Notes: generated by a model not told the origin, from the sequence alone. A stretch of DNA of 42,728 nt from Deltaproteobacteria bacterium (GCA_030688705.1 JAUYJH010000121.1:1-42728); one strand, 5' to 3'; positions 443 to 39,951 are shown, counted from the stretch's first letter. A program made the numbers and translations.

Positions 443-1251
443 AAATAAAACAGCCGGCCTGGATAGCCGCGGCGGCGGGTGTTTTGGCCCTGCTTCTTTC
501 CTTTGGTTATTTTCGTGTCAAAGAGGCACGGCTCAATGCGCTTGAAGATCCGGTGACCGTTGTCGTCGCCAAAAAAGATGTTTTGCAGGCAAGCCGCCTT
601 GATCCATCACAACTGACTCTTATGAAATTCCCACGCCGCTTTGTCCAGCCGGCGGCGGCCCTTTCTCTGGAATCGGTTGCGGGGCAGGTGGCGATGACGC
701 CGATTCTTAAAGGGGAACAGATTGTGATGACCAAACTGCTTCCATTGGGCGAAAAAAGCGGGCTCCAATCCAAAATCCCCTTGGGGATGCGGGCCTTGTC
801 GGTGGAAATGGATGATGTCTCCGGTGTGGCGGGTCTGATCCGCCCCAATAATTTTATTGATCTGTTGGCCACCTTTGAAATGGAAGATTCCACCGAGAAT
901 CTTCAAGTCGGCACCCATACGATCGCCCAAAAAGTTCTGGTTCTGGCCGTCGGCAGAGAAATTCAAAACGGTCTGGACGGAAAAAAACAGAAAGATTCCA
1001 AAAATATGTTCGGCGGCGCTTCCTTTACCGAGTCGCTAACCGGCAACAACAAAAGAACGCTGACTTTGGCGCTGACACCCCAGCAGGCGCAGGAGGTGGA
1101 GTTTGCCAAACAGCAGGGGGTTGTCGCCTTTTCGTTGCGGCCGCAGTGGGAAGAAGAGCCTCTCAATTTGCAGCCGACCACGGCGCTGGATTTAGTTGGG
1201 TTCAAAGGCAGGGCAAAGAGGACGGGGTATCGGGAGTATAGGGGGAAGTAG
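439..1251 (+). CDS. cpaB: Flp pilus assembly protein CpaB/RcpC
   Basis: ATG 439 follows GGGAGAGGAAG. It has an N-terminal TM helix (AWIAAAAGVLALLLSFGYF), then a SAF/RcpC-like region (VTVVVAKKDVLQASRLDPSQL...MTPILKGEQIV). It sits between the tadE-like and secretin genes. Confidence 0.8.
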   Translation: MKIKQPAWIAAAAGVLALLLSFGYFRVKEARLNALEDPVTVVVAKKDVLQASRLDPSQLTLMKFPRRFVQPAAALSLESVAGQVAMTPILKGEQIVMTKLLPLGEKSGLQSKIPLGMRALSVEMDDVSGVAGLIRPNNFIDLLATFEMEDSTENLQVGTHTIAQKVLVLAVGREIQNGLDGKKQKDSKNMFGGASFTESLTGNNKRTLTLALTPQQAQEVEFAKQQGVVAFSLRPQWEEEPLNLQPTTALDLVGFKGRAKRTGYREYRGK

Positions 1252-1345
1252 GACAATGGACAATGGACCAGGGACAATGGACCCACGACAAAAAACAATC
1301 AAAAAGCTTTTAGTCCTTGGTCCTTGGTCCATGGTCCTTGGTCCA
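1251..1345. repeat. Family D heptamer hairpin, copy 1
   Basis: Five tandem heptamers GGACAAT/GGACCAG/GGACCCA (1251-1285) are followed by an A-rich loop, then five inverted heptamers TAGTCCT/TGGTCCT/TGGTCCA (1311-1345). It starts at the last base of the cpaB stop codon. Confidence 0.8.
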
Positions 1346-2779
1346 ATATCATTATTGTTGGCCTCCTTAGCCTTCGCCTCTCCCCTCTCCCCCCAATCCC
1401 TCGCCAAAGGGGAATCATCGGTTATCCAGACCGATTATGAAATCGGCGATGTGGCCATTGCCAATCCCAAAGTGGCCGATTTTATTATTCAGGATGAGAG
1501 AAAATCGCTCTACCTCAACGCCAAGAGCGAAGGGTTCACCACCCTGACTCTTTGGAACAAGGACGGGGAGCTTAAAGATGTCATTCCCGTGACGGTCCAC
1601 AGTGCCAGCTTGAGCGCTATTTTGAGAGAGGCCGAACAATCTTTTGCATCAATCAAATCGATCGATTTTTTGGTGCAAGACGATGTAATCCGCATCGTCG
1701 GCGAGGCCCCTTCTCCTTCTGATTATAAAAGAATCCAATCTTTTGCCGCCAGGTATCCGCAAATTTTGAATGAGGTCATCATGGCCAAGCCGGTTTTGGA
1801 TACCATGACCAGCCGCATTGAAAAAGCGATCGCCATGCCGGGGATCAAAGTCCGCTCGGTCAAGGATCGCGTGGTTTTGGAGGGGGTCGCCTTTAGCCAA
1901 GGGGCCGCAAACAAGGCTTACGAGATTGCCAAACTCTACGATCCCACCGCATTGAATCTTATTGAAATCCGGCAGGGGGACAGAACGCTGGGGAAAGAAG
2001 AGATGGTGCAGATTGATCTCTATTTTATGGAGATTCAAAAATCGGCGCTGCGCACCTTTGGCATCCAATGGGCGCCGGGTTCTTTTCCTGCGGGGGGCGG
2101 AGAAAATCCGTTCGGCGGCGGCGGTGGCGATGCGTCAGGCGGCATCGGTGGGCTGGGACAATCGCTGATCGGTTTTGTGTTGAATCTCGTTCCCAAAATT
2201 CGCTTCATCCGCGAAAAAGGGTTGGGCCGTGTTTTGGAAAACCCGACTATTTTTGTCAAAAGCGGCGACTTGGCCACTTTTTTCAGCGGCGTGCAGGTTC
2301 CCTATTTTGCCCAGCAAAATGTCCAATTCAAAGAGGTGGGGGTCAAGGTGGAGGCCCAGCCGGTTGTTTCCGGAAGCGACGTCGATCTGAAAATGTCGGC
2401 GCAAATTTCCACCCCCTCCGCCCACATCGATGGCGGCATCAATACCCACTCGATCAATACCACCGCGTATATCCCGTCGGGCCAGGCGATGGTGCTCGGG
2501 GGGATTTTAAGCGGCCGGGATGTCAAAACCTATAACCGCGTTCCCAAAGACCTCTCCACCTCATCGGCCCTTTTTACGCTTTTTTTGTCGAAGGATTTTC
2601 AGACCAGCAAAACAGAGCTGGTGGTTTTTGCCCTTCCAAAAATTGTCGCGGCGCAAGCGGATCTCACAAGTCTCAAAGAAGATTGGGCAAAGACGGAAGA
2701 ACAAATGCTCAAAGACCGCTCCATGAAGGAATATCTTGAATACATGAAGAAAAGGAAAAAAATAAATTCTAAACACTAA
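1277..2779 (+). CDS. cpaC: Tad pilus secretin CpaC/RcpA
   Basis: Pilus N-domain-like region (DYEIGDVAIANPKVADFII...LTLWNKDGE) and BON-like segments, then a C-terminal secretin domain (LGRVLENPTIFVKSGDLATFFSGVQVPY, GQAMVLGGIL, ELVVFALPKIV). The ORF is open from 1196. In-frame ATGs at 1256, 1277 and 1331 all lie inside the repeat. 1277 gives the signal-peptide-like N-terminus MDPRQKTIKKLLVLGPWSMVLGPISLLLASLAFA. Confidence 0.85.
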   Translation: MDPRQKTIKKLLVLGPWSMVLGPISLLLASLAFASPLSPQSLAKGESSVIQTDYEIGDVAIANPKVADFIIQDERKSLYLNAKSEGFTTLTLWNKDGELKDVIPVTVHSASLSAILREAEQSFASIKSIDFLVQDDVIRIVGEAPSPSDYKRIQSFAARYPQILNEVIMAKPVLDTMTSRIEKAIAMPGIKVRSVKDRVVLEGVAFSQGAANKAYEIAKLYDPTALNLIEIRQGDRTLGKEEMVQIDLYFMEIQKSALRTFGIQWAPGSFPAGGGENPFGGGGGDASGGIGGLGQSLIGFVLNLVPKIRFIREKGLGRVLENPTIFVKSGDLATFFSGVQVPYFAQQNVQFKEVGVKVEAQPVVSGSDVDLKMSAQISTPSAHIDGGINTHSINTTAYIPSGQAMVLGGILSGRDVKTYNRVPKDLSTSSALFTLFLSKDFQTSKTELVVFALPKIVAAQADLTSLKEDWAKTEEQMLKDRSMKEYLEYMKKRKKINSKH

Positions 2780-3228
2780 ATACTAAACAAATTACAATGA
2801 ATCAAAATAAAAATTCCAAACCCGCTTGTTTCGATCTTGAAAAACGGACACTGCAATTTGCGGAAAATATTATTCAATATACAAAGGTGCTGCCAAAAAC
2901 GCTTTCTAATCTTGAAATTGCAAAACAACTGATCAGATCAGGGGGGTCCGTTGGCGCAAACTACATCGAAGCAAACGAATCGCTGGGCAAAAAGGATTTT
3001 ATGATGAGAATTAAAATTTGCAAAAAAGAATCAAAAGAAAGTCGCTATTGGCTCTGCTTAAGCGAGACTTTTCAGATCAATAAAAAAGAAATGCTGATTC
3101 AAGAGACAAATGAACTGATGAAAATCTTCGGAGCCATTTTAGAAAAATGCAAATAATTCGATTGTTTGGATTTTGGAAATTGAAATTTAGAATTTGTTTA
3201 GAGTTTCGAATTTAGGATTTAGAATTTT
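2764..3228. repeat. Family E AT-rich hairpin element carrying the four-helix-bundle ORF where its inner arm and loop should be
   Basis: The left arm AAATTCTAAACACTAAATACTAAACAAATTACA (2764-2796) is an imperfect inverted repeat of AATTTGTTTAGAGTTTCGAATTTAGGATTTAGAATTTT in the right arm (3157-3228). The right arm is collinear with the right halves of the ORF-less copies at 28303 and 32586. Confidence 0.55.
2797..3156 (+). CDS. Four-helix-bundle protein, 23S rRNA intervening-sequence (IVS) protein family
   Basis: Family-typical sequence: FDLEKRTLQFAENIIQYTKVLPK...EIAKQLIRSGGSVGANYIEANESLGKKDFMMRIKICKKESKESRYWLCL. Confidence 0.9.
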   Translation: MNQNKNSKPACFDLEKRTLQFAENIIQYTKVLPKTLSNLEIAKQLIRSGGSVGANYIEANESLGKKDFMMRIKICKKESKESRYWLCLSETFQINKKEMLIQETNELMKIFGAILEKCK

Positions 3229-3259
3229 GTATTTTTATTTTTAATTTTTCATTTTTATT

Positions 3260-5203
3260 ATGAGTGCGAAAATCATATCCGTAATGGGTGTCAAAGACGG
3301 GGTTGGGGCGTCGGGTTTGGCCAAAGACATCGCCGCGGCCTCCCGCAAAAGGGGGGAGACAGTACTCCTCGTGGATGGTGATGCCGACCATCCCGGTGAT
3401 TTGCGGCTTGTCTGCGGCGATGCCGCCCCGTGGCGCAGCCTCCCTGATCTTTCGCGCCTCTCTTTTGATTCGGACCCTGCGTGGACCCGCGCTTTTTTGA
3501 AAACCGCTTCGGGGTTCAGCGGCCTTGAAATCGCCGCCGCCGGTGAAAATGCCTGGTCGCAGGTGGAGCCGCATCTCCACCGTTTTGATCTGGTGGTCTG
3601 CGATTTGGGCTCCCGGTTTCATTCTCTTGCCGCCTCTTTTTTAAAACAATCGTCCCTTTTTGTTTTGGCGGCCGGCTCCTCGATAACGCACGTGGAGGCC
3701 CTTAAACGCAAAAGCCAAAAACTTTCGATGAGTTTTTTTCCGTTCCAGCGCATCGGCTGGGTGGCCAGAAATTGGGGAAAAGAGGCGTTTTTGAAGACCG
3801 CTGATCTGGAGCAAATCACAAAGATAGCGTGTGTCGGCCAAAAAGGGTCCGATTGCCTTTTGACAATGGACAGGCTCCCCCCCTTGAACGGAGATTTGGC
3901 CCCTTTTCTCCCCGATCGTCTTTTTGGCGAAAAACTTCCCCCTGTTGTGGTGAAGGCGGCGGAAGAACCCGAGGCGCCGCAGACTGTTTCTTTCAGACCG
4001 GAGCTTCTTTCTGCCGTCAAAAAAAGCATGGAGACAAAGGGGCTCAAAGCCGATCAAAACGAGGAGGGATTGCGCGAAAAAGTGAGAATCATTATCCACG
4101 AGGTGCTTCAAGACGCGTCGCTCGATATTCCTTCAGAAACCGACCGCGACGTTTTAACCCGTGAACTTCTTGATGAGCTTTTGGGGCTGGGGCCTCTGGA
4201 AAAACTCCTCTCGCACCCCCATTACAGCGAAATTCTGGTCAACGGCTTGGCGCCGATTTTTGTCGAGGAAAAAGGGCGGCTTCAACCGACCTCTTTTCAA
4301 TTCATCAATCTGGAATCGCTGAACAAGGCGATTGAGAGAATTTTGGCCCCGCTGGGGAGGCGCGTCGATGAGGCCTCTCCGATGGTCGATGCCCGGCTCA
4401 AAGACGGCTCGCGCGTCAACATCATCATTCCGCCTTTGGCCCTGAACGGTCCTGTGGTGAGTATCCGCCGTTTTTCAAAAAATAGTCTCTCCCCCGAAGA
4501 TTGGGTGCGCATGGGGAGCGTCACCGAAGAGATGCTTCAGTTTTTGAAAGAGGGGGTGTTGCGCAAAATGAACATCCTTGTCTCCGGCGGCACCGGTTCG
4601 GGCAAGACGACCCTTTTGAATCTTTTGTCCTCTTTTATTCCCAAAGAAGAGAGGATCATCACCATTGAAGACGCGGCGGAGCTTAAGCTCAACCAGCCCC
4701 ATGTGGTGCGTCTGGAGTCTAGGCCCGCAAACATCGAGGGGAAGGGGATGATCGCCATCCGCGATTTGGTGCGTAACTCCCTAAGAATGCGCCCCGACCG
4801 GATCGTGGTCGGCGAATGCCGCGGGGCAGAGGCGCTCGACATGCTGCAGGCGATGAACACCGGTCACGACGGTTCGCTCACCACCCTGCATGCCAACACG
4901 CCGCGCGATGCCCTTTCTCGTCTTGAAACGCTGGTGATGTTTGCCGGGATGGATCTGCCGTCCAAGGCTATTCGGGAACAGATTGCCTCGGCCATCGACA
5001 TTATCGTGCAGATTGCAAGGGGTGCCGACGGAAGCCGCAAAATTGTTTCCATAGTCAAACTGTCGGGGATGGAAGGGGATGTGTTTACCTTGGAGGAGAT
5101 TTTTGGCGATTGTCATTGCGAGGCCAGCCACGCTTCGCTCGCTGCAGGCTCCGGCCGAAGCAATCTCCCGTGGATTGCTTCGCCCCTTCGGGGCTCGCAA
5201 TGA
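3260..5203 (+). CDS. cpaF: TadZ/CpaE-like ParA-fold domain fused to a TadA/CpaF secretion ATPase
   Basis: The N-terminal ~200 aa have a MinD/ParA fold with the atypical TadZ P-loop (KIISVMGVKDGVGASGLA...VLLVDGDADHPGDL...FDLVVCDLG). The C-terminal part is CpaF: Walker A GGTGSGKTTLLN, Asp box ITIEDAAEL, Walker B DRIVVGECRG, His box GHDGSLTTLHAN. The last 30 codons are encoded by the family A repeat. Confidence 0.85.
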   Translation: MSAKIISVMGVKDGVGASGLAKDIAAASRKRGETVLLVDGDADHPGDLRLVCGDAAPWRSLPDLSRLSFDSDPAWTRAFLKTASGFSGLEIAAAGENAWSQVEPHLHRFDLVVCDLGSRFHSLAASFLKQSSLFVLAAGSSITHVEALKRKSQKLSMSFFPFQRIGWVARNWGKEAFLKTADLEQITKIACVGQKGSDCLLTMDRLPPLNGDLAPFLPDRLFGEKLPPVVVKAAEEPEAPQTVSFRPELLSAVKKSMETKGLKADQNEEGLREKVRIIIHEVLQDASLDIPSETDRDVLTRELLDELLGLGPLEKLLSHPHYSEILVNGLAPIFVEEKGRLQPTSFQFINLESLNKAIERILAPLGRRVDEASPMVDARLKDGSRVNIIIPPLALNGPVVSIRRFSKNSLSPEDWVRMGSVTEEMLQFLKEGVLRKMNILVSGGTGSGKTTLLNLLSSFIPKEERIITIEDAAELKLNQPHVVRLESRPANIEGKGMIAIRDLVRNSLRMRPDRIVVGECRGAEALDMLQAMNTGHDGSLTTLHANTPRDALSRLETLVMFAGMDLPSKAIREQIASAIDIIVQIARGADGSRKIVSIVKLSGMEGDVFTLEEIFGDCHCEASHASLAAGSGRSNLPWIASPLRGSQ

Positions 5204-5204
5204 C
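5112..5204. repeat. Family A palindromic element, complete copy
   Basis: GTCATTGCGAGGCC...CCGAAGCAATCTCCCGTGGATTGCTTCG...GGCTCGCAATGAC. The outer and inner arms are self-complementary. It spans the cpaF-tadB junction. Confidence 0.8.
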
Positions 5205-5754
5205 ACCGCGCCGCAAGAAAAAAATAGAGGCAGGGCTCGCCGACTGTTTCGTGCTCATTGCCAACGCCATGAAAGCGGGGCTTGGCCTGCAACAGGCGCT
5301 GAAACTGGCCGGCGAGGAGGGGCCTTGGCCTTTGAACGAAGAATTTTCTCTCGTTTTAGAGAAGACAAAACTGGGACACACGCTCGATGAGGCCTTAAGC
5401 GACACCGAAAGAAAACTGAACATCCCCGATTTTTCACTCATGGTCCATTCTGTTATTTTACTGCGCGGCATCGGCGGCAATTTGGCAAGCCATCTTGAAA
5501 ATCTCTCCAAAATTTTAAGAGAACGCCAGAAAGTGACGGCCAAAGTGGGGCTTTTGACCGCGCAGGGGATGACGCAGGGGGTGATTTTGGCGGTGATGCC
5601 CTTTGTGCTGGGGCTGGTGCTTCATTTTTTATCGCCCGATTTCATCGCCCCTCTTTTCGCGCATCCGCTGGGTTGGCTCTCGCTGGCGGCGGTCGTGATT
5701 CTCGATTGCGGCGGTTATTTTTGGATGCGCCATATGGCAAAGGTAACTATATGA
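5200..5754 (+). CDS. tadB: TadB-type inner-membrane platform protein (single T2SS-F domain)
   Basis: T2SS-F domain: ADCFVLIANAMKAGLGLQQALKLA...HTLDEALSDTERKLNIPDFSLMVHSVILLRGIGGNLASHLENLSKILRERQKV, followed by C-terminal TM helices. ATG 5200 overlaps the cpaF TGA (ATGA). Confidence 0.75.
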   Translation: MTPRRKKKIEAGLADCFVLIANAMKAGLGLQQALKLAGEEGPWPLNEEFSLVLEKTKLGHTLDEALSDTERKLNIPDFSLMVHSVILLRGIGGNLASHLENLSKILRERQKVTAKVGLLTAQGMTQGVILAVMPFVLGLVLHFLSPDFIAPLFAHPLGWLSLAAVVILDCGGYFWMRHMAKVTI

Positions 5755-6320
5755 AACATTTTCTTATTTTTCTTTTGGTCCTTTGTCCCTGCCTGACCGG
5801 CAGGCAGGCCTGGTCCATAGTCCATGGTCAAGTCTGCCATGTCGCTTATGTCGAAAAACACAACGGCATGGAAAGAAGCCTGACCGCGCGGGTCGGAAAG
5901 GAGATTGTTTTGGGGGAGGTTTTAGGAACTTTTCCGGCCGACCTCAAAGCCCATCCGCCATGGTATTTGACGGGATTCCCCGCTTTTGAAAAGGAGATCC
6001 AAATTGCGCTGGAAGGCCTGCCGCCGCTTCTTTTGCACCGTGAGTTCCATTGTCATTCTGATCCGCCTCTGGCGGAGAAGAATCCCGATTGCCGTGTTTC
6101 CCTCAAACTTTCCGCAAAACAGGAGTCCCTGCCGCTCAATGAAGAAGAGGCGCAGGTCAATGCCCTTCTAAAGCCTTTTGGCGTGGATGAAGTTTTTTTG
6201 GAAGGGACCGGCCGACAGTGGCTTGAATCCGAGGAATTTTTGCTCAAAGGCCATCTTGTGAAAGAGGGAAAAAAAGAACCGCTGGAAATTTCGTGGGCCA
6301 GGGGGAAATTGCCATGGTGA
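5751..6320 (+). CDS. Hypothetical exported protein within the Tad operon
   Basis: ATG 5751 overlaps the tadB stop (ATGA). N-terminal signal-like MKHFLIFLLVLCPCLTGRQAWS. No recognisable domain. Its stop overlaps the tadC start (ATGGTGA at 6314-6320). Confidence 0.5.
   Translation: MKHFLIFLLVLCPCLTGRQAWSIVHGQVCHVAYVEKHNGMERSLTARVGKEIVLGEVLGTFPADLKAHPPWYLTGFPAFEKEIQIALEGLPPLLLHREFHCHSDPPLAEKNPDCRVSLKLSAKQESLPLNEEEAQVNALLKPFGVDEVFLEGTGRQWLESEEFLLKGHLVKEGKKEPLEISWARGKLPW
5775..5830. repeat. Degenerate composite of families D and G
   Basis: TTGGTCCTTTGTCC, then the palindrome CCTGCCTGACCGGCAGGCAGG (5788-5808), then TGGTCCATAGTCCATGGTCA. It lies in the signal-peptide coding region of ORF 5751. Confidence 0.5.
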
Positions 6321-7204
6321 TCCTTATTGCAACCGCCTTTGCCGCGGCCGTTTTTTTCGGGGCCTATTCCCTTGGCCTTGTTTTTGAACGGGAAAAAACA
6401 CGCCTCAAATGGTTTTCAACATTTTCCGGCATTCCAAAAGGGAATTTTCTTTTTACATGGAACGCCCCTTTGATCTCTATCATTGCGAGGAGGCCCATGC
6501 GGCCCGGTGTCATTGCGAGGCCCGCAGGGCCGAAGCAATCTCCCGACAGACTTACAACCCTCCTCAAAGACTCCGGCCTCTATTCCTTTTGCAAAGAAAA
6601 AGAATTTGCCGCTTTTGTTTTTTGTCTTGCGGCAGAAAGTGCCGCGCTTTTCTCTCTTTTTTTTGGATTCTCCTTTTCCCCATTTTTTTGGGGAGCCCTT
6701 TCAGGCGCCGCCTATCCTTTTCTCTGGCTTCTGCAGGCCAAAAAAGAGCGATTTGCAAATATCCGCCGCGATTTGCCGACGGTCATGGATCTTTTGGCGG
6801 TCTCCGTTTCGGCGGGGCTCGACATGATGCAGGCTTTGGAGAGAATTGTCGCCAAACTCCCCAAGCGGGGGCTTGTCGAAGAAATCGATCAGATGCTGCA
6901 CGAGCTAAAACTGGGCAAGACCCGCAAGGAGGTTTTGATTTCCCTTAAAGAGCGGGTTCCGCTTCCGGAAATGAAAACGCTGATCTCTTTTTTGGTGCAG
7001 GCGATCATGCTGGGGACTTCCATGGGCCCGGTGTTGATTGCCGGGGCCGACCAGATGCGCCACCAGCGTTTTTTGGATGCCGAAAAACTGGGGATTCAAG
7101 CCTCCCAAAAAATCCTTTTTCCCCTGATTTTTTGCATTCTGCCGGCGGTTTTTTTGACAATTTTTTCACCGCTAGTGATTCGCTACTACGTTTTGTCATC
7201 CTGA
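6314..7204 (+). CDS. tadC: TadC-type inner-membrane platform protein (T2SS-F domain)
   Basis: N-terminal TM helix, then the T2SS-F domain RRDLPTVMDLLAVSVSAGLDMMQALERIV...LGKTRKEVLISLKERVPLPEMKTLISFLVQAIMLGTSMGPVL, then C-terminal TM helices. The TGA stop lies inside the family B repeat. Confidence 0.8.
   Translation: MVILIATAFAAAVFFGAYSLGLVFEREKTRLKWFSTFSGIPKGNFLFTWNAPLISIIARRPMRPGVIARPAGPKQSPDRLTTLLKDSGLYSFCKEKEFAAFVFCLAAESAALFSLFFGFSFSPFFWGALSGAAYPFLWLLQAKKERFANIRRDLPTVMDLLAVSVSAGLDMMQALERIVAKLPKRGLVEEIDQMLHELKLGKTRKEVLISLKERVPLPEMKTLISFLVQAIMLGTSMGPVLIAGADQMRHQRFLDAEKLGIQASQKILFPLIFCILPAVFLTIFSPLVIRYYVLSS
6479..6545. repeat. Family A partial/tandem copy, in frame inside tadC
   Basis: Two direct CATTGCGAGG half-sites plus CCGAAGCAATCTCCCG. 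It translates as IIARRPMRPGVIARPAGPKQSPDR between TM1 and the T2SS-F domain. Confidence 0.7.
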
Positions 7205-7257
7205 GCGTAGCGAAGGATCCCGGTGGCATCGGGATTCCTCGCTTCGCTCGGAATGAT
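7195..7257. repeat. Family B palindromic element
   Basis: GTCATCCTGAGCGTAGCGAAGGATCCCGGTGGCATCGGGATTCCTCGCTTCGCTCGGAATGAT. It contains the tadC stop (7202-7204) and ATG 7253 of the next ORF. Confidence 0.8.
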
Positions 7258-8026
7258 AAAAAAAATGTTTTACATCGTGCCTTTGTTTTCCAGTTTTTTA
7301 ATCTGGTTTTCTCTTTATCACGTTCGCTTAAATGCATTCCAAATGGAACAAGACCGCGGCCTCATGCTTGCCAAAACAGTGGCCGCCGTCAACCGCGATG
7401 CGCTTCAAAACCGCCTCGACTTTTTGATCCGCCTTGATGAAGTGGCCGGAGCCAAAGGGATAAAAAAGGTTTTTGTTTTGGACGATCAGGAAAAAGTATT
7501 GGCACCCGTTTCTGATTTTGGCCGTCCGTGGAGCATACGTCATTCCGGCCCCCGATTTGTCATTCCCGCGAAAGCGGGGATGACAAACACATCAGAGAGT
7601 TTATCCGTTATTCCCATTCTTGGCCAAAATGAAGAAAAACTGGGGACGGCGGTTGTCTTGTTTGAACCCCAAATTCCCAAATTTTATCTTCTTTGGGCGG
7701 CCTTTTTTGTACCGCTTCTTTTTTCTTCGGGAGTTTTTCTTTGGCGCGTTTTGCCCCGGCGTAAAAATGTTGAAACTCCCAAGGAACAGGAATCTTTTGA
7801 ATGGCTCTCTCTTATGGGAGGGATGATGCAAAAAAAGGTCTATTGTTTTGACGCGTCGGGGTCTCTTTTGGCCTCTTCCAATGGCAATACTTATCGCCAT
7901 ATTCTCGATCTCTTTCCCGATGCAACCGTGGCACAACAGATTTTGGTTTCTCCCTCTCCTAAAGAGGGAATCCATCACATGGAGCTTAAAAATGGTAAAA
8001 GGCATATTATTGTCGCTCTCTCTTAG
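7253..8026 (+). CDS. Hypothetical two-TM membrane protein (sensor-like topology, no output domain)
   Basis: TM1 FYIVPLFSSFLIWFSLY, a ~130-aa external segment, TM2 FYLLWAAFFVPLLFSSGVFLW, then a ~90-aa tail. The ORF is open from GTG 7223. ATG 7253 or 7265 is more likely. It carries a family C repeat in frame (FVIPAKAGMTN). Confidence 0.5.
   Translation: MIKKMFYIVPLFSSFLIWFSLYHVRLNAFQMEQDRGLMLAKTVAAVNRDALQNRLDFLIRLDEVAGAKGIKKVFVLDDQEKVLAPVSDFGRPWSIRHSGPRFVIPAKAGMTNTSESLSVIPILGQNEEKLGTAVVLFEPQIPKFYLLWAAFFVPLLFSSGVFLWRVLPRRKNVETPKEQESFEWLSLMGGMMQKKVYCFDASGSLLASSNGNTYRHILDLFPDATVAQQILVSPSPKEGIHHMELKNGKRHIIVALS
7559..7584. repeat. Family C palindromic element (short copy)
   Basis: GTCATTCCCGCGAAAGCGGGGATGAC, a near-perfect hairpin lying in frame inside ORF 7253-8026. 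Confidence 0.75.
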
Positions 8027-9128
8027 CGCCCTATTTGTCATTGCGAGCGCGAGCGAAGCAATCTCTCGTGAAAGCCGTTTTGCCGCAACAGATTTGGCAG
8101 AGCAGTTTTATAAAATAGCGCATGAAAAGCGGGAGTCGGGGCAATTCAAGGCCGCGATTCAGGCCTTTGAGCAGGCGGCCTTTTTTAATCCCGGCTTGGC
8201 CGAGGCAAAAGTTCAAGAAGAAAAATTACGCAAAGAATTGCAGGCCCAGGCGCAAAACGCCTATCGCGAAGGGTTACAGCATTACCAATTACTCCGTTTT
8301 GAAGAGGCCAAACAAAGCTGGCAAGCGGCGCTCCATGCAATTGTGGATGAAGGGGATCCGTTGAAGATGAAGGTTGAAACGGCATTAGGGTATTCTAAAC
8401 CAATTTTTATAACTCCCTCTCCCCCTGTGGGAGAGGGATGGGGTGAGGGGGATATCCGCACCCTCCTTGAATCCGGCGATCAGGCCCAAGCCATGCTGGC
8501 CTTGAAAGAAACCCTGCAAAAATCTCCCGAAAACGAACGGGCCAAAAAAGTTTATGCCAATCTGGAAACATCGCTTAAAAAAGAGGGAACCGCCGGTCCC
8601 TCAAAAGAAATTGAAGAAAAATTCGCCGAAGCAAAACAGCTTTTGGATATGTCCCAAAACAAATCAACTCTTATAACTTATCATCAACTCAAAAAAGCCC
8701 ACGCCCTCTTTCAAGGCGACGATCTCAAACCACCATTTTTTAAACAGATTGAAGATGGCCTTGAAAAAAGCGCCGCCCAATTGACAAAAGAACTGGAGCC
8801 AAAATTGGCCCGATGGGAAAAAGAATGTTGTCATCCTGAACCCCAAGGGGGTGAAGGATCCCGAATGACAGCCGTCTCTCTCCGCCACGCCATTCAAAAT
8901 TATCCCCCCAACCCAAAAGCCGATGCGCTTTTGCAAAAAGTCTACGAACGCCTCGATGAGAAGGGACGTCCTCTTTTGATGATCGCCCGCACCAAGCAAG
9001 AGATGGAGGGCTGTTCCGTGGCATTGGAAGATTTTGAAGCCGTTAAAAAAGCGGCTGTTTTTTCGGAGGTTCCTGCTTGGGGAGAAGCCCACAAAAATCT
9101 GGAGGCGTGTAAAAAATCAGTTGAATAA
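7992..9128 (+). CDS. Exported helical/TPR-like protein (possible TadD analogue)
   Basis: Signal-like MVKGILLSLSLSALFVIASA, then helical repeats rich in A/E/K/Q/L (GQFKAAIQAFEQAAFFNPGLAEAKV). It is the last gene of the Tad cluster. The ORF is open from 7848, and ATG 7992 gives the signal peptide. It hosts three different repeats in frame. Confidence 0.5.
   Translation: MVKGILLSLSLSALFVIASASEAISRESRFAATDLAEQFYKIAHEKRESGQFKAAIQAFEQAAFFNPGLAEAKVQEEKLRKELQAQAQNAYREGLQHYQLLRFEEAKQSWQAALHAIVDEGDPLKMKVETALGYSKPIFITPSPPVGEGWGEGDIRTLLESGDQAQAMLALKETLQKSPENERAKKVYANLETSLKKEGTAGPSKEIEEKFAEAKQLLDMSQNKSTLITYHQLKKAHALFQGDDLKPPFFKQIEDGLEKSAAQLTKELEPKLARWEKECCHPEPQGGEGSRMTAVSLRHAIQNYPPNPKADALLQKVYERLDEKGRPLLMIARTKQEMEGCSVALEDFEAVKKAAVFSEVPAWGEAHKNLEACKKSVE
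8037..8065. repeat. Family A minimal copy, in frame
   Basis: GTCATTGCGAGCGCGAGCGAAGCAATCTC, translated as VIASASEAIS at the end of the predicted signal peptide. Confidence 0.7.
8414..8451. repeat. Family F G-rich palindromic element, in frame
   Basis: CTCCCTCTCCCCCTGTGGGAGAGGGATGGGGTGAGGGG, translated as PSPPVGEGWGEG. A second copy lies at 14654-14710. Confidence 0.75.
8830..8869. repeat. Family B short copy, in frame
   Basis: GTCATCCTGAACCCCAAGGGGGTGAAGGATCCCGAATGAC, translated as CHPEPQGGEGSRMT. Confidence 0.75.
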
Positions 9129-10624: not shown

Positions 10625-13600
10625 CTACTTATTGGTCGGATGAATCCAGTCAGCCATGGCAAAACCGATTTTTCTCCCAAGCCATTCGGTGCCGATATAA
10701 TTTCCAACACCCGAATAATGAATGCCCGCGCCGAGAGCAAAACCACTTCCCACCACAACCGCGGTAGTTGCCGCGGCCGATGAGGCTACGGTAGCTGCCG
10801 CAGCGGTGCCGGCACTTTTGGCAAAAGCCGCCGCGCCCGCCGCCATTACCGCCACCGCCGGTCCAGTCTGCCGGGCTGTTTGTGCGGCCATTTGTAATCC
10901 GATCCGCGCATTTTGCGCCTGTGTTGAAACAACTGATCTGGCCGTACGGACTAAATGGACACTGCCGTCATTGATAACCTGCCAGCCGAGCTTATGAGCC
11001 CCTGCGATAGTGGGCTTCGCCATTCCGGCGTATTTTGCCGTGTGTGCCCCCAATGCCGTGACGGCTGCTTCGGTTCCGGCAAAGCCGCCCAAAGTTCCTA
11101 TCGCTTCACTCGTGGCGCTTCCATGTTTCAGGGCTTTTACACCGGTTGCATCCAAACCTGCTTCGGTCACTTTTTTGGAGACCTCAAAAACAGGCGTTAT
11201 GGCCGCCAAGTGAAGTGGGGTATAGGGGTTGACTAATATAAAACCTCCCAATATGCCCAGCCCAATCCGGTCGTGCTCTTCTTCGGTGAGGAGCCCCACA
11301 TCTTTATGTGCCGCCACGCCGAGCGCCGCAAAGGCCCCCGCCATTTTGGCAAAACCGGGAATATCACTCCAAAATTTTCCAAGAAGATTCGGCGCCCGCA
11401 TGGACAAAGGCAAACCGGCAGGATTTCGGTTCACCATGTCATTCCGGCCCGCCACGTCATTCCGGAGTGCCACGTCATTCCGGCGAAAGCCGGAATCCAG
11501 TATTTTCGCTCCGGTTCTCCGTTCGGAGCCCGCCCTGAGCGAAGTCGAAGGGTTCTCCGTTCTCTGTGTCTCTGTTCTCCGTACCTCTGTTCTCCATTCT
11601 CCGCCCACTCTATGCCGTACATCCGCCCCTCTAACGGCAACTCTTCTCCCCGCCGTCCGTATCCTGCGGCCTTGGACTTTTCCGGCGGGGCCGGATGTTT
11701 TTCCTCCGCCATTTGTCCGTTGGGCTCTTTCTCTTTGACCCTCGGCCAAAGCGGTTTGAATCTCATGCGGATCTGAAAATACCAATTCAGGATTTTTGCC
11801 AAATTCAATAAGTTGTGCTGCAATTCTGGCCCGTTCGGCCTCGATGGAAGGGTGTTCCATGATAAAATCGAGAGCGGCTCCGGCCGATTCTCTTGAAATC
11901 AACAGACCGCCCACTTTTGCCTTTTCTTGTGTCAATGCGGCGATATCCTCTGCGCCAATGTGGGTCTGATCTTTAAATTGCGCCTCTCTGGCAAGCTCAT
12001 CGAGAAGGTTTAATGCTCCGGAATTGGGACTTTGTTCAAGAAACTTTGTTGCTGCGATAATTCTTGCAAACAAATTGTGTTCCGCACCCTGTATTCCATA
12101 TTCTTTGAATAAATCCGGCGCCATCTCTTTTAAAATCTGCGTCAAAGACTCAACACTGAAGTCTCCAATGTTGATAATTTTGCCCATTCGCCTCTCAATA
12201 TCGGGCACCGCTTCCCTGACTTTTTCGATTTCCGAAGTCGTTCCAACTAATACAAAGCCTGGGTTCTCTACTTCCAGCGTGGGGAGGACCATTCGGAAGG
12301 CGTTGGTTGATGTGGAACCGGGGCCGAATCCCGATGTTTCAGCGATTGATAACCAGTTTTGAAGTTCCTGGGCATGATAAATTCCCGGCTTTCCAAGCCA
12401 GGTTTTGTTGAGGGCATCCGCCACCTTTGCCGCCATTCCCTTGAACAAACCCCCTTTAGCGGCCATGCCTGTTGCATCGATATTGCCCGCACTCTTATTT
12501 CCGGCAAATTTTGCCCTTTTAAGTTTGATGCGATCATTCAAGAAGAGCCACTGAATATATTTCGCAATTAAATCTTTTCCGCTTCCGGAACGCCCGGCAA
12601 GAATAATATGGGGATGTTTTGAGTCCATGGCAGCTTGCACTTTTTTGACAATCTCCTCCACCTCGGGAACGACAACGATTCCTGGTTTTTCAACTTTCAG
12701 CTTTTCGGTTACATCTTTAATAAAGTCATCGACATTCATCTCCGTTTTGCCTTCCGTCGATTTTTTATGCAGTTGATACATCATCACGCCCACCCCTGCC
12801 CCAACAATTCCGGCCAGTGTTGCCGGTATTTGGCCCAATAATATTTTCCAGATCATCGTCTTTTGGCCATCTTTTAACCCTTTATCAGTGCGTGCTCCTT
12901 CAAACGCCTTTTGCAGGGCGGCGACAATTTGTTTGGCCCTTTCCGGCGTAAATTTGTCCGATTTTAAAATGGCTTTGGTTAATTTGCCGTCGACATCTTC
13001 AACAGACAATTTGTTGGTTACGGAGAGGTATTTTTTGTTATCCCCGTTTGGATCGATACACCCGTCGCCTTTGGGGATCTCCAACAGAGTCATTAGTTCA
13101 AGGATTTCCTCGTTTGTTAATTCGACGCCAAGCAGTGTGTTGTAAAATGCTCCCTTATTATCCTGACATTGCTTGTCCAAAATTTTGTGGCCCCCCTTTT
13201 TGTAAACCAATAAAGGGGTGCCTCCATCCACGCCCTTTGACGCGAATCGGCACATTTCATAAATAGAATCCGGGCTTTTGGGAACCAAGAGTTTTGTGTC
13301 ATCGTCGACTTCCAAATTATAGCCGTAATTCATGGCCTGAATGCGGCGTATCTCTTCATCGGTTTTCGGATTTCTTAATGTCCCAAGATCACCCGGTTCT
13401 GTTCTCTTCCCGCTCTCTAGTTCTTTTTTCTCCCTTTCCAAACTTTTTTCCACATCCCCCGGTTTGTCGTGCTGTGCCGACAGCCGGTTCTTTTGAGCCT
13501 TTGATGAAAGTGTGTTAAAATCATCGAGATTTTTTTTGATGCGTGTGTCCGTAACGGGGAAGACACGTACGCGATGCAGATCAGCATTTGGATTAAACCA

Positions 13601-24947: not shown

Positions 24948-25042
24948 GTCATTCCGGCGGAAGCCGGAATCCAGTCATAATGTGAATTGCTGGATCCCGA
25001 CTGCAGCCTGCCCCGTACTGCGATACGGGGTCGGCGATGACG
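24948..25042. repeat. Family C composite palindromic element
   Basis: GTCATTCCGGCGGAAGCCGGAATCCAG, then CTGGATCC, then the nested hairpin CCCCGTACTGCGATACGGGG, ending with CGGCGATGACG. It occupies most of the tlyA to TPR intergenic region (24923-25058). Confidence 0.75.
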
Positions 25043-28302: not shown

Positions 28303-28438
28303 CAAATTCTAAATCCCAAATCCGAAATCCTAAACAAATCCCAAACTTCAAATTCCAATGTTTCAAACAACTGTTTGGAATTTGGAAAATTGGCGTTTGG
28401 GATTTGTTTAGAATTTAGAAATTAGAGTTTAGGATTTT
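28303..28438. repeat. Family E AT-rich long hairpin, ORF-less copy
   Basis: The left arm CAAATTCTAAATCCCAAATCCGAAATCCTAAACAAATCCCAAACTTCAAATTCCAA is imperfectly complementary to the right arm TTGGAATTTGGAAAATTGGCGTTTGGGATTTGTTTAGAATTTAGAAATTAGAGTTTAGGATTTT. It fills the entire gap between the SBP and permease genes. Confidence 0.85.
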
Positions 28439-29443
28439 ATGTTGCTATATATCTTAAAAAGAATCCTGCTGATGGTGCCCACTCTCATTGGCATCATTTT
28501 TATCACTTTTATGGTGATTCGTCTGGCGCCGGGGGATCCCGCGGAAATGAAGCTCCGCAGCGGGGCGGGAGGGATGCTGGCTGATAAATCGGCCGTCTCG
28601 ATTGTGGAAGAGACCCGCAAACTTTACGGCCTGGACAAACCGATCGCGGTGCAATTTGGCATCTGGGTCAAGAGGGTGGCCACGTTCGATTTTGGCGATT
28701 CCTACAAAGACCATCAGCCGGTTTTGGGTAAAATCGCCACGGCCCTTCCGATTACGCTGACCTTGAACATCATCACCATTTTCATCGTTTATCTGGTTTC
28801 GATTCCTTGGGGGATTGTCTCGGCCGTTAAACCGACGGGACTCTTTGATCGTGTCAGTGCGTTGATCTTGTTTGTTTTATACTCTCTCCCCTCGTTTTGG
28901 GTCGCCTTGATGCTGATTATTTTTGTCGCCGGCGGCGATTATCTCAACCTGTTTCCGATCGCCGGATTTATTTCGGATGAAGCCTATCAACTCAATTTTT
29001 TTCAAAAAATGGGAAATGTGGCGTGGCACCTTGTTTTGCCGGTGGTCTGCCTGACCTACGGGAGCTTTTCGTTTCTGGCCCGCTTCAGCCGCGCCACCAT
29101 GCTGGAGGTGATTCATCAAGATTACATCCGCACCGCACGGGCCAAGGGTTTAAGCGAATGGAAGGTCATTGTGAAACACGGGTTTCGCAATGCCTTGATC
29201 CCGCAACTAACTTTATTGGGGACATTATTGCCGGCTTTGCTCGGCGGCTCTGTCATTATCGAGCAGATTTTTGCGATACCCGGCATGGGGCGGCTCGGTT
29301 TTGAGGCGGTGTTAAACCGCGACTATCCTCTGATCATGGGGATTGCCACGATCGACGCCTTTTTGACCCTGATCAGTCTGTTGATCAGCGATCTTTTATA
29401 TGTGGCGGTCGATCCAAGAATTACGTTTGAAGGGAATTTATAA
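28439..29443 (+). CDS. ABC peptide transporter permease (OppB/DppB type)
   Basis: MLLYILKRILLMVPTLIGIIFITFMVIRLAPGDP N-terminus and the EAA-loop region DYIRTARAKGLSEWKVIVKHGFRNALIP. Confidence 0.9.
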   Translation: MLLYILKRILLMVPTLIGIIFITFMVIRLAPGDPAEMKLRSGAGGMLADKSAVSIVEETRKLYGLDKPIAVQFGIWVKRVATFDFGDSYKDHQPVLGKIATALPITLTLNIITIFIVYLVSIPWGIVSAVKPTGLFDRVSALILFVLYSLPSFWVALMLIIFVAGGDYLNLFPIAGFISDEAYQLNFFQKMGNVAWHLVLPVVCLTYGSFSFLARFSRATMLEVIHQDYIRTARAKGLSEWKVIVKHGFRNALIPQLTLLGTLLPALLGGSVIIEQIFAIPGMGRLGFEAVLNRDYPLIMGIATIDAFLTLISLLISDLLYVAVDPRITFEGNL

Positions 29444-30314: not shown

Positions 30315-30411
30315 GTCATTGCGAGGACTGCGAGCGCAACGAAGCAGGACGAAGCAATCTCTCGGTAAGAACGGGAGATTGCCGCGTCGCCTAAAGGCTC
30401 CTCGCAATGAC
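30315..30411. repeat. Family A palindromic element, complete copy
   Basis: GTCATTGCGAGGACTGCGAGCGCAACGAAGCAGGACGAAGCAATCTCTCGG...GGGAGATTGCCGCGTCGCC...CTCCTCGCAATGAC, in the permease to ATPase intergenic region. Confidence 0.8.
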
Positions 30412-32577: not shown

Positions 32578-32718
32578 GCAAAAAAAATCCTAAATTCGAA
32601 TATCTAAATCCTAAACAAATCCTAAATTCCAAATTTTAATATTCAAACAACGGTTTGAAATTTGTAGTTTGGAAAATTAGAAATTGTTTAGAATTTAGGA
32701 TTTCGTGCTTAGAATTTT
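32578..32718 (-). repeat. Family E AT-rich long hairpin, ORF-less copy, followed on the minus strand by T8 (possible terminator of the radical SAM gene)
   Basis: The arms share the core TCCTAAACAAATCC / GAAATTGTTTAGAATTTAGGA with copies 1 and 2. The A8 run at 32580-32587 becomes U8 immediately 3' of the hairpin on the minus strand, 54 nt downstream of the stop at 32772. Confidence 0.6.
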
Positions 32719-32771
32719 GACCATTCAGGTCAGGCGCTAGCCAATGCCAGGCCACACCCCGCGCCACAAGC

Positions 32772-33703: not shown

Positions 33704-33737
33704 GAGATTGCTTCGTCGCTTCGCTCCTCGCAATGAC
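33704..33737. repeat. Family A half element
   Basis: GAGATTGCTTCGTCGCTTCGCTCCTCGCAATGAC lies 6 nt upstream of the radical SAM start codon on the minus strand. Confidence 0.7.
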
Positions 33738-37783: not shown

Positions 37784-38839
37784 ATGAAATTACGCATTCC
37801 CCCTTCCAAAAGCATCACGCACCGGGCGCTGTTTTGCGCGGCCATGGCGCAAGGCGAGAGTGTTCTTGTCAATCCGCTCGTTTGTGATGATACGCTGGCG
37901 AGTGTTGGTGTTTTAAGGGCGTTGGGGATTGAAATTCAACTAGGCGAACCATGGCGTGTTCACGGCGGCACCTTCAAAAAACCATTCAGACCTTTAGATT
38001 GCAACGAATCGGGAACGACTTACCGTTTTGTTACGGCATTGACCGATGTTTTGCAGATTCCCTGCGAGATTACCGGAAAACCTTCGCTGTTGCGCAGACC
38101 TCAAAGACCCGATCCTCAAATCAGCTCCCAATATTTGTCGGGGCTTCTTTTGGCAAAGGATTTGTCCATCGCCACCCCGCTTGTTTCCAAATCGTATGTC
38201 GATTTGACATTGAGTGTTCAAAAAGTTTTCGGCGTTACAACCCCAACCGATTCCTACAAACCGGCATCGATCACCATTGAAGCCGACTGGTCTTCTGCCG
38301 CCTTTTTGCTGGCGCTGGGGGTTTTGTGTGATGGAGTGGAACTGGAGGGGTTGAACCCTGATAGTTTGCAAGGGGACAAGGCGATTGTGACGATACTCAA
38401 AGAAATGGGGGGGGACATTTTTTGGCGAGGAGAAAAGCTGGTTGCCAGAAAATCGAAACTGAAGGGATTGCGCTGGGATTTTGATGCAACACCCGATTTA
38501 TATCCGATAGCGGCTGTGTTGTGCCGCTTGGCAGAGGGAAAGAGCGAGTTGACCGGATTAGAACGCCTGCGTTTGAAAGAATCGGACCGACTAGCCGCGA
38601 CGCATAAAATTGTCACCTGGTGCCACCTGCCTGCCGGCAGGCAGGGGCCACCGGGTGACAAAAAGGCTCTTGTTGTTGACTCGAAAGACCATCGCATTAT
38701 CATGGCTGCGGCCGTTTGGGCCAAGGCTAAGGGGCAAACGGTGAAGTTTAAATATCCCGAGGCGGTATCTAAATCGTGGCCGGGATTTTGGGAAACACTT
38801 GATGTCATTCTGAGCTCGGATGGCGAAGAATCCCGGTGA
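37784..38839 (+). CDS. aroA: 3-phosphoshikimate 1-carboxyvinyltransferase (EPSP synthase), unusually short
   Basis: PPSKSITHRAL, ESGTTYRF, LLRRP, ISSQYLSGLLL, TPDLYP, LKESDRL, KDHRIIMA and SKSWPGFW correspond to the conserved AroA motifs. However, it has 351 codons against ~430 typical. There are gaps after RRP and near the C-terminus, and a palindromic repeat sits in frame. Confidence 0.7.
   Translation: MKLRIPPSKSITHRALFCAAMAQGESVLVNPLVCDDTLASVGVLRALGIEIQLGEPWRVHGGTFKKPFRPLDCNESGTTYRFVTALTDVLQIPCEITGKPSLLRRPQRPDPQISSQYLSGLLLAKDLSIATPLVSKSYVDLTLSVQKVFGVTTPTDSYKPASITIEADWSSAAFLLALGVLCDGVELEGLNPDSLQGDKAIVTILKEMGGDIFWRGEKLVARKSKLKGLRWDFDATPDLYPIAAVLCRLAEGKSELTGLERLRLKESDRLAATHKIVTWCHLPAGRQGPPGDKKALVVDSKDHRIIMAAAVWAKAKGQTVKFKYPEAVSKSWPGFWETLDVILSSDGEESR
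38612..38659. repeat. Family G palindrome, in frame inside aroA
   Basis: GTCACCTGGTGCCACCTGCCTGCCGGCAGGCAGGGGCCACCGGGTGAC is a 48-nt near-perfect palindrome, translated as VTWCHLPAGRQGPPGD. Its core is shared with 5788-5808. Confidence 0.75.
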
Positions 38840-38876
38840 TAACGGGATCCTTCACCCCTGCGGGGTTCAGGATGAC
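38804..38876. repeat. Family B palindromic element
   Basis: GTCATTCTGAGCTCGGATGGCGAAGAATCCCGGTGATAACGGGATCCTTCACCCCTGCGGGGTTCAGGATGAC. It encodes the last 11 codons and the stop of aroA, and ends 9 nt before the aroC ATG. Confidence 0.8.
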
Positions 38877-38885: not shown

Positions 38886-39896
38886 ATGAGCAATATTCTT
38901 GGAAAACAATTTTGCGTTGTCAGCTTTGGTGAAAGCCATGGGCCGGTGATTGGCGTTGTGATCGATGGCTGTCCGGCCGGTTTGAAAATCGATACCGATC
39001 AAATAGCGAATGATTTAGCGCGGCGCCGCCCCGGACAAGCCCTAACCACGCCGCGCAATGAGCCAGACAATTTTGAAATTCTCTCCGGCCTTTTTAACGG
39101 GCACACAACCGGCGCCCCAATTTGCTTTACCATCCGCAATCACGATATCGACTCTTCCAAATATGAAGATCGCCGTTTCACCCCGCGCCCCGGCCATGCC
39201 GATTATACCGCCTTCATAAAATATGGCGGGTTTGAGGACTACCGCGGAGGGGGGCGTTTTTCAGCCCGCGTCACCGCCGGTCTCACAATTGCGGGAAGCC
39301 TTGCCAAACAGCTCCTAGAAAAAATCGGCGCCACGGTTTCCGCAAAAATTTTGGAAATCGGCGGGACCGACAAAAATTGGGATGAAAAAATCGCGCAGGC
39401 GGCGGAATTGGGGGATAGCGTTGGCGGTATCATCGAGGGTGAGGCGCTCCATCTTCCGGTCGGTTTGGGCGAGCCTCTTTTTGATAAACTGGACAGTGAG
39501 CTGGCCAAAATCCTCTTTTCACTTCCCGCCGTCAAGGGGGTCGAATTTGGAAGCGGTTTTGCTGCGGCCAAAAAATTGGGGAGTGAAAATAATGATCCTT
39601 TTGAAATCCAAAACGGAAAAATCGTTACAAAAACAAATCATGCCGGCGGCATCTTGGGGGGCCTTTCCAACGGCATGCCGTTAATTGTCCGCGTGGCTTT
39701 CAAACCGATCGCCTCGATCGCAAAAGAACAAGAGACGATCGATCTTAAGACGGGCAGGCCGGCATTTTTAAAAACCGAAGGCCGTTTTGATCCTTGCCCC
39801 ATTCCGAGGGCCGTGCCATTAGTGGAAGCCGTTATGGCAATCGTCCTTGCCGATTTTGCATTGCGGCAACGCTATTTGCCGAGGGTTTTAAGGTAA
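38886..39896 (+). CDS. aroC: Chorismate synthase
   Basis: FCVVSFGESHGPVIGVVIDGCPAG, LARRRPGQ, YRGGGRFSARVTAG, GDSVGG, HAGGILGG. The ORF is open from 38820 through the repeat. ATG 38886 gives the canonical N-terminus. Confidence 0.9.
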   Translation: MSNILGKQFCVVSFGESHGPVIGVVIDGCPAGLKIDTDQIANDLARRRPGQALTTPRNEPDNFEILSGLFNGHTTGAPICFTIRNHDIDSSKYEDRRFTPRPGHADYTAFIKYGGFEDYRGGGRFSARVTAGLTIAGSLAKQLLEKIGATVSAKILEIGGTDKNWDEKIAQAAELGDSVGGIIEGEALHLPVGLGEPLFDKLDSELAKILFSLPAVKGVEFGSGFAAAKKLGSENNDPFEIQNGKIVTKTNHAGGILGGLSNGMPLIVRVAFKPIASIAKEQETIDLKTGRPAFLKTEGRFDPCPIPRAVPLVEAVMAIVLADFALRQRYLPRVLR

Positions 39897-39897
39897 T

Positions 39898-39951
39898 GTC
39901 ACCCTGAACGGAGTGAAGGGTCCCGGGATCCTTCGTTTCACTCAGGATGAC
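39898..39951. repeat. Family B palindromic element
   Basis: GTCACCCTGAACGGAGTGAAGGGTCCCGGGATCCTTCGTTTCACTCAGGATGAC fills the aroC to permease intergenic region. Confidence 0.8.

Follow-up and report, generated by a model that had tools for sequence, protein, structure and literature searches.

Tagged hairpin repeats of a deltaproteobacterial genome and their probable partner, a small Ssn-type GIY-YIG nuclease

Which enzyme acts on the short palindromes that crowd a 42,728-nt stretch of DNA from a Deltaproteobacteria bacterium (GCA_030688705.1, JAUYJH010000121.1:1-42728)? An earlier note on this stretch, hereafter called the window, described 23 copies of seven palindromic repeat families (A to G), three of which, A, B and C, share their termini despite different interiors, and proposed that they are moved in trans, for example by a RAYT transposase. 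We find that families A, B and C are probably strand-oriented, single-stranded DNA (ssDNA) hairpin repeats of the Ssn/SRM system (SRM, Ssn-related motif), also known as CGTC-tagged repetitive extragenic palindromes (REPs), with a small Ssn nuclease encoded on another contig of the assembly, C104, as their partner. The system is already known, and this genome adds another instance of it.

The window corresponds to contig C146 of an assembly of 1.88 Mb (181 contigs, 92% complete, 49.7% G+C). Comparison with dinucleotide shuffles of the window indicated that the dense repeat population is real and well above expectation: the family A head GTCATTGCGAGG gives 10 matches with at most two mismatches against 3.6 expected, a number reached by 0 of 100 shuffles, the family B head GTCATCCTGARC gives 13 against 4.0, and a family C 25-mer gives two against 0. 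The top 12-mers of the whole assembly are GTC-tagged repeats and heptamer arrays. The pentamer GTCAT alone is not enriched genome-wide (3737 observed, 3679 expected); the sequence that follows it is strongly concentrated on GTCATTGCGAG (123), GTCATTCTGAG (89), GTCATTCCGGC (80) and GTCATCCTGAG (59). A structural search of the genome for GTC, any 5-mer, up to 110 nt, the reverse-complementary 5-mer and C returned six main stems, all of the form AYYSY: ATTGC (147), ATTCC (118), ATCCT (105), ATTCT (103), ATCCC (40) and ACCCC (35). The reversed genome, used as a control, gave A/T-rich noise with none of these six among its ten commonest stems. About 545 non-redundant GTC units are present genome-wide, 20 of them in the window. 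On recounting the window, the hand-counted copies of families E (three) and F (two) hold, and the other figures change: family A has about 8 units and family B about 10, family C comprises two units with truncated or degenerate companions and one palindromic unit (Table 1), family D has two clear hairpin loci instead of three, and family G one exact copy instead of two. At the gathering threshold, Rfam detects one tRNA only in the window and no family overlapping the repeats.

Units of families A, B and C adopt the same layout: a (T/C)GTC tag, an outer stem of 5 bp with the sequence AYYSY, an interior that varies, the other half of the stem, a conserved C and a short tail. The logos, built from 145 A, 207 B and 186 C units, read tTGTCATTGCGAg ... 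cGaaGCAATCtc for A, tTGTCATcCTGAgC ... gcGAAGgATCCCG for B and cGTCAttCCgGCGaAAGCcGGaaTCCAGt for C, with the 5' GTC followed by A(T/C) and the 3' (A/G)TC kept in all three. In families A and B, whose units measure from 25-34 nt up to about 60 nt, the outer stem is followed first by tandem G.A mismatches, GA/GAA in A and GA/GA in B, and then by a variable inner hairpin; family C has an 8-bp stem with a GC extension and a GAAA cap. The units fold as ssDNA better than their shuffles. Between families, each change in one half of the outer stem is matched by the other half (ATTGC/GCAAT, ATCCT/AGGAT, ATTCC/GGAAT and ACCCC/GGGGT) around a constant unpaired GTC and C, so that the hairpin rather than the sequence is what is conserved in this stem. 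The unpaired GTC immediately 5' of the stem and the C immediately 3' of it also give each unit an orientation.

The orientation is reflected in the arrangement of the units, 394 of the 545 (72%) forming tail-to-tail doublets (GTC...C, spacer, G...GAC), with 197 such pairs against three head-to-head and four tandem ones. Pairing within doublets is regular, as testified by the combinations ATCCT/ATTCT (70), ATTGC/ATTGC (48), ATTCC/ATCCC (27) and ATTCC/ACCCC (23). The three families had been said to begin with GTCA[TC] and to end with [AG]ATGA[CT]. The first part applies to all of them; the second does not, as single units end in ...RATC followed by C or T, and the ATGAC end was seen because the inverted second unit of a doublet closes with it. 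The common recognition signal proposed from these termini is nevertheless borne out by the logos, in which A, B and C form one superfamily. Units also occur nested in one another.

The same anatomy is found in the Neisseria repeat NTS, CGTCATTCCCGCGMAVGCGGGAATCYRG (Chenal et al., Nat Commun 2025, PMC11893778). NTS and SRM hairpins are bound and cut, as ssDNA only and in one orientation only, by SsnA, a 94-aa single-domain GIY-YIG protein with the catalytic residues Y6, Y17 and E64; the three bases before the NTS palindrome govern cleavage, the C after the palindrome is the key base for binding, and the ssnA gene is typically flanked by repeats in the order NTS-ssnA-NTS (PMC11893778). The constant positions of families A, B and C, GTC upstream and C after the stem, are those that control cleavage and binding, and family C is almost the NTS consensus.

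A search of the whole genome for GIY-YIG proteins returned UvrC and two small open reading frames (ORFs), on C104 and C155. The former (C104:3117-3392) encodes a single domain that matches PF01541 with 61 bits over residues 5-78 of a core of about 95 residues. A family A unit ends 6 nt before its start codon, more A units lie just downstream, and the ORF terminates within one of these. As in Neisseria, a GIY-YIG gene of about 95 codons is thus bracketed by inverted units and accompanied by hundreds of gene-less copies; the differences are that the bracket here is family A, with its ATTGC stem, tandem G.A mismatches and variable inner hairpin, and that three families occur with one detected nuclease. 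Residues Y9, Y20 and E67 are invariant across 14 homologues, and their spacing (11 and 47 residues) is that of Y6, Y17 and E64 of N. meningitidis SsnA. The closest solved structure to the C104 protein is the UPF0213 protein 1zg2, with an E value of 2e-4 only, and NCBIfam has no specific model for this nuclease. The second small gene, a UPF0213/YhbQ-like gene on C155, was considered as a partner of families A to C or of family G and rejected, as no repeats flank it.

Cassettes of this kind are also present in relatives (G000 denotes this genome, G001 a congener from the same genus, and G002 onwards further relatives). Nuclease homologues scoring above 70 bits were detected in 13 of 30 relatives, and 13 of the 14 cassette loci examined, including the one on C104, are bracketed by correctly oriented units located about 10-40 nt from the gene. 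The bracketing units are of family A in G000, G001, G003, G004, G013 and G018, of family B in G005 and G009, and C-like in G017, G022, G025 and G030; G015 carries a single upstream unit with another stem (ATTCA), and G010 has no flanking unit. An alignment scan of 185,579 species genomes added 80 loci at 49-67% identity in more than 20 named lineages, spanning cyanobacteria, Chloroflexota, Patescibacteria, Bacteroidota, Gamma-, Alpha- and Deltaproteobacteria, Planctomycetota, WOR-3, Atribacterota, Bacillota and others. Of these loci, 66 are flanked by a correctly oriented unit on one side or more and 42 on both sides, with the flank stems ATTGC (56), ATTCT (13), ATTCC (13) and ATCCT (7).

When the flank family (A, B or C) is mapped on a maximum-likelihood tree built from 98 nucleases, 8 changes suffice, compared with a mean of 31 after shuffling, and 0 of 200 shuffles gave a number as low; this short tree has weak resolution, and labels recur among related rows. 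Since its rows come from many phyla, the clustering of flank families follows the nuclease subclade and not the host. With a hairpin family of its own accompanying each nuclease subclade, a set of candidate ssDNA nucleases that differ in specificity is at hand.

By analogy with the tested enzymes of Neisseria, N. elongata, N. wadsworthii and Wolbachia, the C104 Ssn would bind the folded hairpin on one strand of ssDNA, would depend on the C that follows the stem to bind and on the GTC that precedes it to cleave, and would nick a few bases upstream. A requirement of the nuclease for GTC and C would explain why families A, B and C share these termini in spite of their different interiors.

Short hairpins with a conserved unpaired tag, a single-copy bracketed enzyme gene and recognition as ssDNA are also features of the REP-RAYT systems, which, together with bacterial interspersed mosaic elements (BIMEs) and REP doublets forming hairpins (REPINs), were reportedly described by Nunvar in 2010, Bertels and Rainey in 2011 and Ton-Hoang in 2012. 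The inverted doublets of two sub-types likewise resemble the Y and Z REPs of BIMEs. That the present repeats are REP/REPIN elements moved in trans by a RAYT, an IS200/IS605-like Y1 transposase, is nonetheless very unlikely, and this part of the earlier note is not upheld: the bracketed gene encodes an Ssn-type GIY-YIG nuclease and not an HUH Y1 transposase, and the RAYT-like genes of this genome carry other palindromes. The genome does hold seven Y1_Tnp-family ORFs (C92:8995-9705, C120, C80, C108/C36, C12 and C115), the inverted doublets do recall REPINs and BIMEs, and single-strand hairpins whose 5' tag is short and conserved are also substrates of HUH enzymes. However, five of these ORFs, which represent four genes, are flanked by palindromes of their own, CTACCAGGTAG (38 copies), GGGGAACGTCCCC (15 copies), CACGAGGAGCC and GGGGTCCGAC, each in 12-38 copies, those on C12 and C115 have no obvious flanking palindrome, and no GTC unit lies within 1.2 kb of any of the seven. 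The tag is GTC and not GTAG, and no RAYT gene is bracketed by units of families A to C here or at the 94 Ssn loci examined, in agreement with the report that no RAYT is flanked by CGTC-tagged REPs in any genome (Di Nocera 2013, PMC3733652). The window was said to be without a transposase, and indeed no Y1-transposase or GIY-YIG match is found on its contig.

The class of CGTC-tagged REPs (Di Nocera, De Gregorio, Rocco, BMC Genomics 2013, PMC3733652), which includes dRS3 of Neisseria and RPE-4/RPE-6 of Rickettsia, was reported to have AT-opening stems, tails, dimers, intragenic copies and no dedicated transposase; NTS and Ssn-related motifs are the CGTC/TGTC-tagged REPs of this class, renamed by Chenal et al. 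2025 (PMC3733652, PMC11893778). The repeats studied here carry the CGTC/TGTC tag, a complementary A-T opening of the stem and a conserved short (3-bp) tail, and they share with the class one dominant orientation of inverted dimers, homo- and heterodimers, intragenic copies and the lack of a flanked RAYT. Family C (8 bp and GAAA) fits the dimensions of CGTC-tagged REPs (8-9 bp for the stem, 4-5 nt for the loop), whereas families A and B differ by their 5-bp outer stem, G.A mismatches, interiors of 8-90 nt and nested elements. The hosts, which include many uncultured phyla, also extend beyond the five phyla of the 2013 list.

Copies are gained and lost between congeners. Synteny of G001 with the window extends across about 46 kb, with 66-83% DNA identity, and the congener has no intact GTC unit in this region, compared with 20 here. 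At the tadA/tadB and oppC junctions, the congener has overlapping stop and start codons where doublets of 93 and 97 nt are present here, the window being about 100-150 nt longer overall, and at 21182 an unrelated hairpin stands in the place of the doublet. Genome-wide, family A has 82 copies here and 56 in the congener, family B has 177 and 6, and copy numbers vary widely among relatives. The mobile behaviour that had been claimed for the repeats is in keeping with these empty orthologous sites, with the difference in family B and with the nested copies. Exact-protein look-ups aimed at other assemblies of the species gave one contig identical across the doublet, and four of them returned no match. 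In a metagenome-assembled genome (L142; GCA_034372585.1, JAXMKQ010000215.1) with an identical OppC-like protein, the contig ends exactly at the start of the family A doublet, an example of how these repeats interrupt assemblies made from short reads. Several contigs of the present assembly also end in repeats.

The location of the units has to be considered in weighing a role at the level of RNA or the chromosome (operon punctuation, protection of mRNA 3' ends, attenuation or supercoiling), with the link to Ssn being incidental or regulatory. According to crude gene calls (87% coding), 65% of the units are intergenic, compared with 13% expected at random, and 15% lie deep inside ORFs, compared with 66%; units are strongly depleted from gene interiors genome-wide. 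Furthermore, 79% of the doublets lie between co-directional genes, the doublet at 21182 replaces a hairpin of the congener, and many REPs have been argued to be transcribed (Di Nocera et al., PMC3733652). Yet heterodoublets show no orientation bias relative to transcription (18 vs 28 for family B, p = 0.18; 18 vs 18 for family C), there is no T-tract, and copies lie within coding sequence and within one another. The swing from 6 to 177 copies between congeners fits selfish spread better than a conserved function, and the conserved unpaired GTC and C have no RNA rationale, SsnA not binding RNA (PMC11893778). We therefore consider such a role improbable as the main reason for which the hairpins are kept.

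A stronger contender, possible although in our view rather doubtful, is that a domesticated Ssn recognises the repeats in restricting or channelling incoming ssDNA, and that the repeats spread by ordinary recombination or replication slippage and not through the nuclease. The sole experimentally shown role of SsnA is the cutting of transforming ssDNA at NTS, which lowers transformation about five-fold (PMC11893778), GIY-YIG nucleases form no covalent intermediate and so cannot transfer strands alone, and families B and C are maintained in this genome although no cognate nuclease was detected. On the other hand, precise nesting, a cassette-like tail-to-tail geometry and lineage bursts are hard to obtain by unassisted recombination, and a cassette found across many phyla at 50-66% identity looks like a horizontally moving selfish unit.

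Assignment of families A, B and C to the Ssn/SRM system, which we still prefer, is weakened by several observations. The published SRM pattern, HGTCWYN(0-2)YYVSBRHN(0-5)WNVSBRGN(0-2)RNCYNB, has 92 matches in the genome against four in the control, all with family C-type stems; 83 of 187 family C units match it, as do 0 of 358 units of families A and B. The kinship of the C104 protein to N. meningitidis SsnA/cd10448 is suggested by way of homologues at 50-55% identity, L066 and L131, which have exact NTS flanks. The assembly contains one Ssn gene, of A type, for about 210 B and 190 C units without a detected cognate, and a tblastn search of it with 14 homologues found no B- or C-type ssn gene or fragment; three relatives, G021, G023 and G002 (67% complete), likewise hold many units and no strong Ssn match. 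At 70-80% identity, filled and empty sites of the window and the congener are too diverged for insertion boundaries or target-site duplications to be read. Lastly, the role that the literature shows for Ssn, in Neisseria, is to limit transformation and not to move repeats. As for families B and C, they may be orphans, may be cross-recognised by the A-type enzyme, or may have a nuclease gene in the part of the genome that the 92%-complete assembly lacks. The SRM pattern catches family C only and misses family A (stem ATTGC), the most frequent bracket of the nearest Ssn homologues in the various phyla, so that a survey relying on this pattern undercounts the system.

Going beyond this assignment, the gene-less inverted doublets might be derivatives of the Ssn cassette comparable to miniature inverted-repeat transposable elements (MITEs), and the nuclease might spread the repeats through nick-induced repair or copying. 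The cassette and the gene-less doublets would then be an autonomous/non-autonomous transposon pair driven by a GIY-YIG ssDNA nuclease, an idea that we put forward tentatively and hold to be less probable than its negation. If true, mobilisation driven by a GIY-YIG enzyme would be a mechanism demonstrated for no element so far, the system would have been active in this lineage since the split from the congener (family B 177 vs 6; 20 vs 0 syntenic units), and the roughly 400 B and C units would be either cross-mobilised by a single A-type nuclease or fossils of lost nucleases. With three families, one nuclease and a repeat-poor congener, this genome is a reasonable place to test spread driven by Ssn.

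The repeats also leave their mark on genes. Their proposed influence on gene termini and protein linkers is confirmed, some copies being true in-frame linker insertions and others supplying gene ends (Table 1). About half of the copies had been placed inside ORFs: this is close to the count in the window (about 6 of 14 loci) and far above the genome-wide share deep in ORFs given above, which in turn exceeds the 2% of copies in ORFs reported for N. meningitidis. The copies assigned to the interior of aroA are in fact boundary copies. Preservation of the reading frame is not significant, with spans divisible by three in 12 of 17 deep intragenic and 54 of 107 intergenic doublets, a weak test since insertion boundaries are not known. 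The ORFs with internal copies are intact, conserved frames, and the genes holding them are therefore not pseudogenes; the TPR-like ORF 7827-9128 has three in-frame copies in this genome and in the congener alike. In-frame palindromic insertions that add short peptides in variable protein regions also characterise the Rickettsia palindromic elements, reportedly described by Ogata et al. in Science in 2000; the units here are shorter (24-60 nt vs about 100-150 nt), and most copies are intergenic. For annotation, the repeats matter because they extend ORFs spuriously, encode C-terminal tails, create new start and stop codons where genes of an operon meet and insert linkers in frame; they also break metagenome assemblies at their sites.

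Table 1. Palindromic repeat loci in the window, families A to C followed by families D to G. Positions are counted from the first nucleotide of the window; +, forward strand; -, reverse strand.
Position	Element	Units and strand	Context and remarks
5112..5204	family A/A tail-to-tail doublet	5112-5165 (+), 5173-5204 (-)	tadA/tadB junction; the ATPase ORF takes its last ~30 codons and stop from it, the next gene an ATG; -30.7 kcal/mol as ssDNA, z -5.1
6052..6084	single family B unit, stem ATTCT	+	inside ORF 5499-6320
6479..6540	truncated family A head, then complete unit	head 6479-6490, unit 6509-6540 (+)	in frame, N-terminal part of tadC-like ORF
7195..7257	family B doublet	7195-7219 (+, ATCCT); degenerate inverted partner 7233-7257 (tag ATC, stem ATTCC)	boundary of ORFs 6227-7204 and 7211-8026
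7559..7584	palindromic family C-like unit GTCATTCCCGCGAAAGCGGGGATGAC		in frame, ORF 7211-8026; clean 11-aa in-frame insertion relative to the congener's orthologue
8037..8063	family A unit	+	in frame, TPR-like ORF 7827-9128; degenerate counterpart in the congener
8830..8860	family B unit (ATCCT)	+	in frame, ORF 7827-9128; degenerate long-form orthologous copy in the congener
11438..11497	family C unit after two truncated heads (18-nt period)	heads at 11438 and 11456, unit 11474-11497 (+)	encodes ~20 aa of variable linker in the 1046-aa gene (minus strand); segment absent from the G002 homologue
21182..21236	family B heterodoublet, 5-nt spacer	units at 21182 and 21212; ATCCT (+), ATTCT (-)	between two co-directional genes; z -5.3
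24948..25041	family C doublet	24-nt unit 24948-24971 (+); degenerate long-form partner 24990-25041 (-)	
30315..30411	family A/A doublet	units at 30315 and 30377	between oppC-like gene and next gene; about 150 nt fewer in the congener; z -6.4
33706..33737	single family A unit	-	divergent intergenic region; absent in the congener
38804..38876	family B heterodoublet	units at 38804 and 38846; ATTCT (+), ATCCT (-)	just upstream of aroA homology start (38886)
39898..39951	family B doublet	units at 39898 and 39927; ACCCT (+), ATCCT (-)	directly after aroA stop codon
1251..1344	family D, inverted tandem heptamer arrays (GGACNNN x5 ... NNNGTCC x5)		gene junction
26657-26740	family D, as above		gene junction
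2750..3241	family E, AT-rich inverted arms around 23S-rRNA-IVS-protein gene		gene 2797-3156 (119 aa; PF05635, 56 bits)
28299-28448	family E		gene-less copy
32580-32728	family E		gene-less copy
8413..8450	family F (CTCCCTCTCCCC..GGGAGAGGGA..GGGGTGAGGGG)	+	
14655-14710	family F, second copy		
38615..38660	family G, 20-nt perfect palindrome CCTGCCTGCCGGCAGGCAGG	core 38627-38645	inside a longer GTCAC...GTGAC palindrome

Two regions of the window deserve mention for their gene content. The tadB-like region consists of two overlapping ORFs in different frames (4927-5754 and 5499-6320); since the same split is seen in the syntenic region of the congener, it is not an assembly error. The syntenic region of the congener lacks a counterpart of the segment 9771-14783, which carries the 1046-aa gene and toxin-antitoxin-like genes, and a homologue of the 1046-aa gene, at 60% identity, was found in G002 only.

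Families D, E, F and G have no GTC tag and are separate from the superfamily of A, B and C. Family D arrays, which in the window lie at gene junctions, number about 80 per strand genome-wide, and GGACCATGGACC, which belongs to these heptamer arrays, is the commonest 12-mer of the genome with 135 copies. Family E has a gene-in-hairpin layout like that of the Ssn cassette, and gene-less copies exist here too. A family E hairpin also lies immediately upstream of the C36 half of the Y1_Tnp gene whose two halves lie at the ends of C108 and C36. Family F is a G/C-rich double hairpin with about 22 copies in the genome. Family G has 35 genome copies (e.g. C149:24854, C114:976 and C34:12995), which sit precisely in loops of elements of families B, C, D and F; no target-site duplication of the MITE type is seen at these nested copies. 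No tiny GIY-YIG gene adjacent to a tRNA gene was found in the assembly. The family G palindrome also forms the core of a palindrome of about 50 nt, GTCAY...GTGAC, present in about nine copies.

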